Shown piece by piece: positions 21,447 through 22,454 of a stretch of 64,000 bases of DNA; the stretch's first letter is position 1, and each line of letters starts with the position of its first letter. Both the position numbers and the translations under genes were made by a program. The notes beneath the pieces are model-generated. The model did no database searches, was not told the origin of the DNA, and saw only the letters and a list, made by a program, of their open reading frames with translations. The stretch covers positions 157,990 through 221,989 of the forward strand of contig NZ_JAIRAU010000047.1 in assembly GCF_020073745.1 (NCBI RefSeq), in the 5' to 3' direction. The DNA comes from Nannocystis pusilla. Its GTDB lineage: Bacteria; Myxococcota_A; Polyangia; Nannocystales; Nannocystaceae.

Positions 21447-22454
21447 ATGACGGCGACCTCAACGACGCGACGCCGACGCCTCATCGCGCTGCTGGCCCTC
21501 CAGGCAGGGACGTTCTTCGTCACCATTCTCGCCTTGATGTTCGCTCACCCCCCCGAGGCATTCGTACCAGCGATCCAGGCCCTCTCGCTCGTGGTGGTAC
21601 TGCTCGGCGCGCTGACCGGACGGGTCCTCTTCTCCCCACCGAAGCCTTGGCTTGACGCTGTCGCCGAGACAGGCCAGGGACGTGAGACGCCCGAGTGCCG
21701 CGTTCTCTTGATCGGTCTCGGCCGCTCGGGCAAGACTAGCCTCATCCGTCAAGTCTTGACGGGAACGACTCGCGCCGAGCAGTCCACAAAAACATTCAAC
21801 GTCTATCGCGCTCCACGCGTGACCGATCTCGGCGGAGCCCGCTTCGACATCGTCCTCGCGGATTATCAAGGGCAAAAGCTCTCGCAGCTCGTTATTGACC
21901 CTCCGATTAGTTTCTTCGGCCCACCCGGCGATCGGCGGATCAACGCGATAATATTCGTGGTGGATTTGTTCAGGGAGCGTCGCGATGCGGTCGGAAACCC
22001 AGTATGCGACGCAGTGCTGCTCGAACAGTACTCGCACGACACAGGGGCGCAGATCCAAGAGCGCGTGGATGAGCAGTGCAAATATATCAGCGAGTTTACG
22101 ATCGAGATCATACTCGAGACGACTTTCAATCGACGACAGGTCTGCTCAATTATCCTGGTCGTCAACAAGATCGACCTGCTCCGGATTCTTGTCGAACGAG
22201 GGTGCCTTGAGGGGGTCTCCTCTTCAAATATGGAGCACTACGTGAGCAACCTTTATGCACCGCTCCTAAATCTACTGAGGGAGGCGGCACGAGCAAACGA
22301 GGTTGAGGGACTTTTCGGAGCGTACCTCGTCAGCGCAAGGACGGGCGAGAACGTCGCCGTTGCGTTCTCGGAGATCCTTCGGCGGTTTCAGTTGCTGCAT
22401 TGGAGGGGCTCCACAGATGCACGAGAGTTCGTGCAGGAGATGGCGCATGGATAG
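21447..22454 (+). CDS. Membrane-anchored Ras-superfamily-like small GTPase (island gene 3)
   Basis: Two N-terminal TM helices. G1 LLIGLGRSGKTSL. G3 DYQGQ. G4 VVNKIDL (NKxD). G5 VSARTGENV (SAK-like). Starts immediately after the gene 2 stop. Confidence 0.75.
   Translation: MTATSTTRRRRLIALLALQAGTFFVTILALMFAHPPEAFVPAIQALSLVVVLLGALTGRVLFSPPKPWLDAVAETGQGRETPECRVLLIGLGRSGKTSLIRQVLTGTTRAEQSTKTFNVYRAPRVTDLGGARFDIVLADYQGQKLSQLVIDPPISFFGPPGDRRINAIIFVVDLFRERRDAVGNPVCDAVLLEQYSHDTGAQIQERVDEQCKYISEFTIEIILETTFNRRQVCSIILVVNKIDLLRILVERGCLEGVSSSNMEHYVSNLYAPLLNLLREAARANEVEGLFGAYLVSARTGENVAVAFSEILRRFQLLHWRGSTDAREFVQEMAHG

Follow-up and report, generated by a model that had tools for sequence, protein, structure and literature searches.

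What does a small Ras-like GTPase with membrane-spanning helices do in a bacterial operon? To our knowledge, small Ras-like GTPases are few in bacteria, and the known ones (MglA, the conservon GTPase CvnD and Rup) are soluble. The question is raised by a gene at positions 21447–22454 of a 64,000-nucleotide stretch of Nannocystis pusilla DNA (contig NZ_JAIRAU010000047.1, positions 157,990 to 221,989), which was analysed as a whole and is referred to below as the window. This gene, here called gene C, is the third of five genes (A to E) on the + strand, to which all window coordinates given below refer unless indicated otherwise. Its 335-amino-acid (aa) product was studied by analysis of the open reading frame (ORF), sequence motifs, homologues and an AlphaFold2 (AF2) model. 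The protein belongs to an undescribed family of membrane-anchored small GTPases that are encoded together with a membrane-spanning partner, and we lean slightly towards reading it as a membrane G-protein switch that would gate the NADase encoded by gene A in a candidate abortive-infection system.

Gene C Encodes a Membrane-Anchored, Motif-Complete Small GTPase

The ATG start codon of gene C abuts the TAG stop codon of the upstream gene B, and the encoded protein is 100% identical to an N. pusilla protein labelled 'hypothetical' or 'G domain-containing'. Since full-length homologues, with identities of 90, 76, 61, and approximately 40%, were found in other assemblies, gene C is not a chance ORF. 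In the G1 motif or P-loop (GLGRSGKT, residues 90–97; 21714–21737), G90, S94, G95, and K96 were invariant in homologue alignment A1, while in alignment A2 G90, G95, and K96 were invariant and S94 was nearly so. The switch-I threonine of G2 (T114, in S113-T114; 21786–21788) was invariant in both alignments. The G3 motif (DYQGQ, residues 139–143; 21861–21875) contains invariant D139, Y140, and G142 and ends in a catalytic-type glutamine (Gln143). Residues N240, K241, and D243 were invariant in G4 (NKID, residues 240–243; 22164–22175), the motif for guanine specificity, and S296 and A297 were invariant or nearly invariant in G5 (SAR, residues 296–298; 22332–22340). The presence of G1 to G5 in this order places the protein among the TRAFAC-class, extended Ras-like P-loop GTPases.

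Upstream of the G domain, two hydrophobic 19-residue segments, TM1 (residues 12–30; 21480–21536; Kyte-Doolittle 2.29) and TM2 (residues 38–56; 21558–21614; Kyte-Doolittle 2.32), form a transmembrane (TM) hairpin (21480–21614). Four arginines (RRRR, residues 8–11) precede TM1 and a loop of approximately 7 residues joins TM1 to TM2. This combination of flanking charge and short loop points to an N-in/C-in topology, in which the G domain would be cytoplasmic. The AF2 model, built from a 22-sequence alignment, had a predicted local distance difference test (pLDDT) score of 81 and a predicted template-modelling (pTM) score of 0.70. It showed a canonical G-domain core, with the G domain extending from residue 83 to approximately 320, two long helices (residues 5–32 and 37–62) and a disordered linker (residues 63–78).

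The product of gene C can be described with high confidence, at the protein level, as a membrane-anchored, motif-complete GTPase. It is predicted to be a catalytically competent small GTPase at the cytoplasmic face of the inner membrane, where it would hydrolyse GTP. An initial, sequence-only reading of this stretch had reported that all five G-boxes were readable and that the protein was probably an active GTPase anchored by N-terminal helices. The G-boxes proved to coincide with the conserved positions in homologues; the assignment to the TRAFAC small GTPases was upheld, with none of the motifs for nucleotide binding or catalysis impaired; and the membrane anchor agreed with hydropathy, flanking charges and the long helices of the AF2 model. 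The role suggested in that reading, a 'membrane sensor or effector switch', was too vague and left aside the genomic setting, which comprises an obligatory bitopic partner gene, the low-GC operon with a DUF4062 NADase homologue and, in another family member, a TIR–GTPase fusion. Because only the loop of approximately 7 residues would lie outside the cytoplasm, leaving almost no extracytoplasmic surface, the GTPase is probably a switch and not a sensor.

A Rare and Patchily Distributed GTPase Family

Searched exhaustively with HMMER, 1.84 billion representative proteins (50% identity clusters) yielded 140 matches at E ≤ 1e-3, 93 of which were at E ≤ 1e-10, and family members were nearly all 270–350 aa long. 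A word-indexed search of 5.8 billion clusters returned 16–22 matches. When N-terminal hydrophobic segments were counted with a crude threshold in the 139 representatives with a P-loop, two were found in 77 proteins and one in 45 (122/139 with any). A P-loop together with D[YF]xG occurred in 137 representatives, in which the next residue was Gln in 105/137 and Glu in 21/137, and NKxD was present in 113/121 members. A distance close to 100 aa between G3 and G4 was likewise shared by nearly all members. The common signature comprises GxxRSGKT, ST, ADYxGQ, FFG, INAIIFVVDLF, a helical insert, NKxDLL, and SA.

Based on these features, a 'TM-hairpin DYxG GTPase' family is defined here by one or more N-terminal TM segments, the motifs GxxxxGK[ST], ADYxG[QE], and NKxDL, a G3-to-G4 spacing of about 90–110 aa, and a gene for a bitopic partner protein downstream of the GTPase gene. 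All of these characteristics were found for gene C. When each of 185,579 species was represented by a single genome, a scan detected the family in three metagenome-assembled genomes (MAGs), from Polyangia, Anaerolineae, and Chloroflexota, and matched no Nannocystis representative. Use of a back-translated motif to scan metagenomes and genomes added five further loci. The family is undescribed, rare and patchy. In two proteins, P0042 (562 aa, with a TM segment) and P0146 (297 aa), pentapeptide-repeat regions are fused to a GTPase of the family.

Two Expansions Distinguish the G Domain

In the AF2 model, strand β4 (residues 167–173) and strand β5 (residues 234–240) are separated by a segment of 60 aa (residues 174–233; 21966–22145), within which the family-specific helical insert lies. 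This segment contains three helices (residues 188–195, 199–213, and 216–226), which were modelled with a pLDDT of about 86–94, whereas Ras has a single helix, α3, between β4 and β5. The spacing between G3 and G4 is 101 aa in gene C (family median 100), as opposed to 59 aa in H-Ras and Arf1 and 69 aa in G-alpha-i1, so that the net insertion amounts to approximately 40 aa and not to 60 aa. The insert of ~60 aa between G3 and G4 in the sequence-only reading corresponds to the length of the β4–β5 segment and overstates the net gain. That reading also overlooked a second expansion, of approximately 27 aa, between G4 and G5. The spacing there is 56 aa in gene C (family median 55), 29 aa in Ras and 55 aa in G-alpha-i1. 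From the G1 lysine to the G2 threonine the distance is only 18 aa in gene C (family median 18), which indicates that a G-alpha-type helical domain is absent.

Position Among Known GTPase Families

The best Pfam matches of gene C were SRPRB, Arf, G-alpha, Roc, and Ras, mostly over the P-loop. Among 22 family members the matches, all below threshold, were to G-alpha (17), Roc (17), SRPRB (14), and Arf (13), and sequence searches of the Protein Data Bank (PDB) gave P-loop-level matches only. Profile alignment with hhalign gave different nearest relatives for the two halves of the G domain. Positions 80–174 of the family profile (P-loop to β4) aligned with residues 14–94 of Arf1 (probability 95.8%, E 7e-9), and positions 234–310 (β5–α5) aligned with residues 263–339 of G-alpha-i1 (E 6.7e-5), including NKxDL and the long G4-to-G5 spacer. 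The corresponding probabilities were 58% for H-Ras and 13% for MglA. Judged by these profiles, gene C is placed close to Arf, SR-beta, and G-alpha within the Ras-like GTPases, outside every named family.

Assignment to individual families was considered and rejected in each case. The match to the Arf family (PF00025) reached 22.5 bits against a cut-off of 22.3, yet only positions 12–51 of the 174 profile positions were aligned; moreover, the N-terminus of gene C is a TM hairpin and its G3 is DYQGQ, not (W)DVGGQ. SR-beta (SRPRB, PF09439) scored 24.9 bits (1.4e-5) against a gathering threshold of 25.0, over profile positions 5–81 of 178, while gene C has two TM helices and Pfam detected no SRX/longin-like neighbour. 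For G-alpha (PF00503), the score was 21.2 against a cut-off of 48.8, similarity was confined to β5–α5, and no conserved Arg precedes T114. Membership of the MglA family is contradicted by the presence of the G3 aspartate (D139), and none of genes A, B, D, and E had a roadblock-domain match. In a comparison based on the published description of DO-GTPases (PMC7159879), gene C was found to have an Asp in Walker B/G3 and no Cys-rich N-terminus, and the genes downstream encode bitopic proteins of 190–245 aa without a Pfam match instead of GAP1. Affiliation with ABC proteins or another non-GTPase P-loop family was suggested only by weak AAA_16-type matches, which ranked below those to GTPases. An NCBIfam search returned nothing informative, and a membrane GTPase of this kind is described neither in a survey of MglA and Rup (PMC4316618) nor in the Asgard ArfR preprint.

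Three further points of the sequence-only reading can be assessed from these comparisons. Alignment to Ras, Rab, Arf, and MglA families, which it had proposed as a check, bore out a Ras-like GTPase, although the nearest relatives are Arf, SR-beta, and G-alpha and not Ras or Rab. Its contention that the protein is atypical for bacterial Ras-like GTPases of the MglA/Rup type agrees with the low hhalign probability for MglA and the lack of a roadblock partner. The possibility it had raised of a non-GTPase P-loop family was not borne out, as no such family outranked the GTPase families in profile searches.

With Arf, Arl, and SR-beta of eukaryotes and ArfR of Asgard archaea, gene C has in common the G-domain fold, a Gln after DxxG and an 'IFVVD' β4 strand. 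Arf and SR-beta use a myristoylated amphipathic helix or a single TM segment, whereas gene C has two TM helices; their G3 is DVGG or DLPG, whereas that of gene C is DYxG, with inserts of approximately 40 aa after β4 and 27 aa after G4. Gene C further differs in its bacterial origin, its sporadic distribution and its place in an operon that also encodes a bitopic partner. G-alpha proteins have approximately 135 aa between G1 and G2, with a helical domain, and a switch-I arginine finger, neither of which occurs in gene C with its 18 aa. Heterotrimeric G proteins involve G-beta-gamma and a seven-transmembrane (7TM) receptor, in contrast to gene C, which has no G-beta-gamma and a single-pass partner.

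The DO-GTPase/GAP1 conflict systems of Kaur et al. (2020) resemble the gene C system in being GTPase-centred and multi-gene, with variable components and an often membrane-proximal location (PMC7159879). N-terminal TM segments occur in 13% of DO-GTPases, which share with the family of gene C an occurrence in multicellular bacteria (for example Chloroflexi) and have been proposed to act as effector-deployment switches (PMC7159879). However, DO-GTPases have a Walker B Glu, usually carry zinc ribbons, often occur as paralogous pairs and have a three-domain GAP1 partner (PMC7159879), whereas gene C has a G3 Asp, lacks a zinc ribbon, occurs as a single copy and is accompanied by a short bitopic partner. 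MglA and Rup are, like gene C, prokaryotic single-domain switches of the Ras superfamily, and Group 1 Rup genes adjoin a gene for a TM protein with a peptidoglycan-binding domain (PMC4316618). In contrast to gene C, MglA has no Asp in its G3 (TxPGQ), contains a G1-to-G2 insertion and is coupled to MglB, a roadblock protein. The G3 Gln is missing from Rup group 1, and both MglA and Rup are soluble and smaller than 240 aa (PMC4316618).

A Bitopic Partner Is Encoded at Every Locus With Downstream Sequence

A gene for a bitopic protein was present downstream of the GTPase gene in 12/12 distinct loci with downstream sequence (the window, L001, L020, L003, L004, L007, L009, L011, L017, L018, L019, and the P0009 contig). 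The stop codon of the GTPase gene and the start codon of the partner gene usually overlapped or were separated by a very small gap. Nine of the 12 partners share an N-terminal peptide, [ND]V[DN][FY][KR][IV] (alignment A4), which is followed 10–25 residues further on by a Trp, a TM helix and a heptad-like (coiled-coil) segment. In a six-frame scan of the loci, the combination of this motif and a TM helix was found a single time in each of the eight distinct loci caught by the regular expression. The motif-bearing gene was always located 3' of the GTPase gene, either directly or, in the Nannocystis/Polyangia clade, beyond gene D.

The C-terminal part of the partner varies between loci. It is absent from the proteins of 66–89 aa encoded at L003, L018, L019, and the P0009 contig, and consists of PD40 in L004, ankyrin repeats in L007, a 170-aa domain without family assignment in L009, PG_binding_1 in L011, a long coiled coil in L017, and a charged low-complexity tail in the window. 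The PD40 and peptidoglycan-binding C-termini suggest that the C-terminus of the partner lies outside the cytoplasm, which would leave the conserved peptide on the side of the G domain. On the P0009 contig, the order of genes (sigma-factor-like gene, 2434–3117; GTPase, 3183–4103; 89-aa partner, 4100–4369) hints at a sigma/anti-sigma-like use of the GTPase–partner pair in some lineages.

In the window, the family-wide partner is encoded by gene E (23036–23773; 245 aa from the ATG at 23036, in an ORF that is open from 22970), whose start was assigned from the alignment with L020. Its product has an acidic N-terminal region, the peptide NVDFRV (23222–23239), and a TM helix (23327–23383), after which the sequence RLSNRVSELERVF precedes the charged tail. 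Homologues of gene E are located at 9586–10362 of L001 and at 1809–2567 of L020. Between genes C and E, gene D (22417–23022) encodes another bitopic protein of 201 aa (191 aa from the ATG at 22447), with a TM helix at residues 31–49. The identity of gene D to its positional counterparts amounts to 52% (L001) and 67% (L020). The gene overlaps the stop of the GTPase gene by 38 nt (8 nt from ATG 22447) and had no Pfam or database family match. Its C-terminal domain contains 8–9 Cys (CLGKCNCLCYSRR...CRLNQDAC...) and is probably disulfide-bonded and extracytoplasmic. Taken together, the GTPase and its bitopic partner are likely to form a functional pair, with presumed physical contact between the two proteins.

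The GTPase Gene Belongs to a Horizontally Acquired Five-Gene Operon

Genes A to E are closely spaced, with 2 nt between A and B, 0 nt between B and C, an overlap between C and D, and approximately 13 nt between D and E. No terminator-like site was found between the operon genes on the + strand, and promoter and terminator scans remained at background level. Gene B (20907–21446) encodes a protein of 179 aa with one N-terminal TM helix (residues 3–21), followed by three K/R, and the remainder of the protein is probably cytoplasmic. It had no Pfam, NCBIfam, or PADLOC match, and showed 26% identity to its positional counterpart in L001 and 57% identity to a fragment in L020.

The order A-B-C-D-E is kept in the Polyangia MAG L001, with identities of 44% (A), 26% (B), 61% (C), 52% (D), and 36% (E). 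There the cassette is flanked by genes for an alcohol dehydrogenase and an FG-GAP protein, as opposed to a lipoprotein and a GMC oxidoreductase in the window. Partial copies of the operon were found in L021 (90% identity), L020 (76%), and L022. In the window, genes A to E lie in a low-GC island (19750–24200) with a GC content of 0.53–0.65, as compared with 0.70–0.77 in the flanks, and the GC content at third codon positions (GC3) is 0.63–0.70 in genes A to E and 0.97 in the flanking GMC oxidoreductase gene. The composition of the five-gene operon is foreign and the operon is horizontally acquired. At the island boundaries, no tRNA gene, integrase, or convincing flanking direct or inverted repeats were found.

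Gene A Encodes a Putative DUF4062 NADase

The first gene of the operon, gene A (20014–20904), encodes a DUF4062 (TIR-like/NIR) NADase homologue of 296 aa, composed of a TIR-like domain (residues ~1–165), a low-confidence linker (172–207), and an all-beta auxiliary domain (208–296). The protein matched Pfam DUF4062 with an E-value of 1.8e-24, and its residues 6–175 matched the structure of the Klebsiella Swarozyc protein KpSwz (PDB 10wc; E 2e-34). Glu84 aligned with the catalytic residue E97 of KpSwz, which was identified via construct numbering, and Glu86 was invariant in an alignment of 20 homologues. The auxiliary domain differs in sequence from that of Swarozyc. Gene A is predicted to encode a Swarozyc-like DUF4062 NADase in which the catalytic Glu is retained.

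DUF4062 (NIR) has TIR-like NADase activity that leads to abortive infection, and it has been described in Swarozyc, Evangelion, Vulcan, Vesta, and Avs proteins (10.64898/2026.05.01.722283; 10.64898/2026.09.04.749371; 10.64898/2026.06.25.731849). No GTPase or membrane component is mentioned in these three preprints. Enrichment in defence islands has been found for NIR (20% against 3.9%). Gene A has the layout of a core and an auxiliary domain in common with Swarozyc. Known DUF4062 systems are single proteins, two-gene systems (Vesta, with a phosphatase) or NLR-like fusions, whereas gene A is the first of a five-gene operon in which the four other products are membrane proteins, including the GTPase.

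Linkage of this NADase to the GTPase was not restricted to the window. Among 1175 DUF4062 matches, the three closest proteins with the whole auxiliary domain of gene A were P0161–P0163, and the GTPase was present in 4/4 examined loci with this auxiliary domain, a count that excludes P0166, P0164, and P0168, which share the domain only in part. In L022, a DUF4062 gene with 43% identity to gene A adjoins the GTPase gene. A TIR domain was also found in direct fusion with the GTPase: in P0064 (435 aa), TIR_2 (residues 7–128; 2.8e-28) is joined to a GTPase of the family (match 207–425; E 5e-21). Other genes typical of conflict systems occur in the vicinity of the GTPase gene at three loci, namely EACC1 and Peptidase_C14 (caspase)-FGE-sulfatase genes directly upstream in L018 (109–2356), a gene for a caspase-STAND-WD40 protein in L007, and genes for a NACHT protein and a PIN toxin in L011. 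The support that these neighbours give to a role in defence is anecdotal.

Proposed Mechanism and Competing Explanations

The mechanism proposed for the operon starts at the envelope. Partner E, in the Nannocystis/Polyangia clade together with the Cys-rich protein D, would report an envelope event across the membrane, and this report would set the nucleotide state of the GTPase, in a manner formally similar to a receptor/G-protein pair. The GTP-bound, membrane-concentrated GTPase would then recruit or release an effector. In the window this effector would be the product of gene A, and the active GTPase would gate NAD+ depletion. Because TIR-like NADases are activated by assembly, the GTPase may act by concentrating or oligomerising the NADase at the membrane. 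Coupling of the GTPase to the NADase and to defence is judged to be evenly poised, with contact between the two proteins, the direction of signalling and a defence phenotype all putative. A more specific scheme, in which the bitopic envelope sensor would be the exchange factor for the GTPase, and the GTP form would assemble and activate the DUF4062 NADase at the membrane and thereby kill the infected cell, is rather doubtful as a whole; guanine-nucleotide exchange factor activity of the partner is purely conjectural.

Several observations weigh against a switch that gates a defence NADase. The family was not found in plasmid, phage (tblastn), or viral-contig collections, so that there is no evidence that it rides on known mobile replicons, and no known defence genes were found in the flanks of the island. 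A search of PADLOC-DB 2.0, which predates the DUF4062 work, gave no match for genes B, C (the GTPase), D, and E, and a single weak match for gene A (PDC-M02B, E 0.008). The link to DUF4062 was seen only in the Nannocystis/Polyangia clade, in addition to one TIR fusion, and most family loci have no recognisable effector. With respect to the topology of the partner, the flanking charges of the protein in the window are ambiguous, and the L007 partner carries ankyrin repeats.

Alternatively, the GTPase and its partner might constitute a housekeeping-type switch for envelope signalling or assembly (cell wall, outer membrane, or extracytoplasmic function (ECF) sigma control) that has no role in immunity and to which DUF4062 is an add-on. 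The partner C-termini with PD40 (TolB-like) and PG_binding_1 would fit this function, as would the OmpA-domain genes and DUF4230 upstream in L009, the ECF sigma-like gene (Sigma70_r2/r4_2) directly upstream of the GTPase gene on the P0009 contig, the PagL, TamB, and BamA genes near L011, and the lack of an obvious effector at most loci. Wuichet and Sogaard-Andersen described Rup1 small GTPases beside signalling outputs and a TM protein that carries a peptidoglycan-binding OmpA domain (PMC4316618). However, housekeeping systems are rarely as sporadic as a family found in 3/185,579 species representatives. The foreign composition of the operon, its different flanks in L001, the TIR–GTPase fusion P0064 and the tight coupling to the NADase, whose auxiliary domain was GTPase-linked in 4/4 examined loci, also argue against a housekeeping function, which is regarded as a minority possibility. 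It is still less probable that gene A is a self-sufficient defence protein of the Swarozyc/Evangelion type and that genes B to E form a hitch-hiking membrane module without a role in NADase regulation. Swarozyc and Evangelion work as single genes, in which a DUF4062 core is combined with a phage-sensing auxiliary region, and since gene A has the same two-part architecture, it might not need the GTPase. This independence of gene A is difficult to reconcile with the gaps of 2 nt (A–B) and 0 nt (B–C) without a terminator-like site between the genes, with conservation of the order A to E at 61% identity of the GTPase and 44% identity of A, and with the occurrence of the three closest sharers of the whole auxiliary domain in GTPase loci, besides the independent TIR–GTPase fusion.

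The similarity of the N-terminal half of gene C to Arf1, and the fact that SRPRB was its best single Pfam match, could also be taken to indicate a bacterial counterpart of SR-beta or Sar1/Arf, acting in protein targeting, membrane remodelling, or vesicle formation. SR-beta has an N-terminal TM anchor as well. Nevertheless, the SRPRB match remained below its gathering threshold and covered profile positions 5–81 of 178, no SR-alpha/SRX-like or coat-like partner was found, and the inserts and DYxG are not features of Arf or SR-beta. Since the family is absent from almost all bacteria, a core targeting role does not fit, and this explanation is very improbable.

The fold and switch chemistry of gene C are ordinary; the family, its constant partner and the wiring to DUF4062 are new with respect to the literature found. 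As a permanently membrane-inserted family that combines Arf-like and G-alpha-like features and is tied to a single-pass membrane partner, these GTPases offer a simple and genetically tractable model for transmembrane control of G proteins. Their Arf-like N-terminal half and G-alpha-like C-terminal half could be relevant to how G-alpha originated from Arf-like GTPases. If the GTPase indeed gates the NADase, the operon would represent a new architecture for NAD-depleting defence, with the first small GTPase that gates a TIR-like enzyme, and a prokaryotic immune pathway with a receptor-to-G-protein-to-effector logic. If the link to defence fails, a rare new GTPase family without an assigned role would remain, which would be of moderate interest.

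Additional Features of the Locus and Its Relatives

Divergent from gene A, a gene on the – strand (18384–19745) encodes a predicted lipoprotein of 453 aa with a GHSAGG serine-hydrolase-like motif, a GC3 of 0.81 and no Pfam match. This gene adjoins the cassette in L020 and L021 as it does in the window, is not adjacent to it in L001, and is possibly part of the mobile unit. The 268-bp divergent intergenic region between this gene and gene A contains a 17-nt inverted repeat (19931–19971; 88% complementary, 7-nt loop), 43 nt upstream of the DUF4062 start, which may be an operator or an RNA hairpin.

At L007 and L009, a transglutaminase-core + Ig-like_KY gene is present within a few kb of the GTPase gene, on either side. 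The GTPase gene of the MAG contig L022 (5033–5943) is split over two frames (tblastn pieces 5033–5419 and 5416–5943), a frameshift that may reflect a pseudogene or an assembly error. The Logan contig L020 (1–4743), with a GTPase 76% identical to gene C, is circularly permuted relative to window positions 18384–23800. Its blastn segments against the window (9–2499, 2742–3841, and 4249–4703) correspond to the order end of B, C, D, E, homologue of the minus-strand gene at 18384–19745, and start of the DUF4062 gene. This permuted order indicates that, in that sample (SRR29352979), a six-gene unit of approximately 5.4 kb is tandemly repeated or circular.

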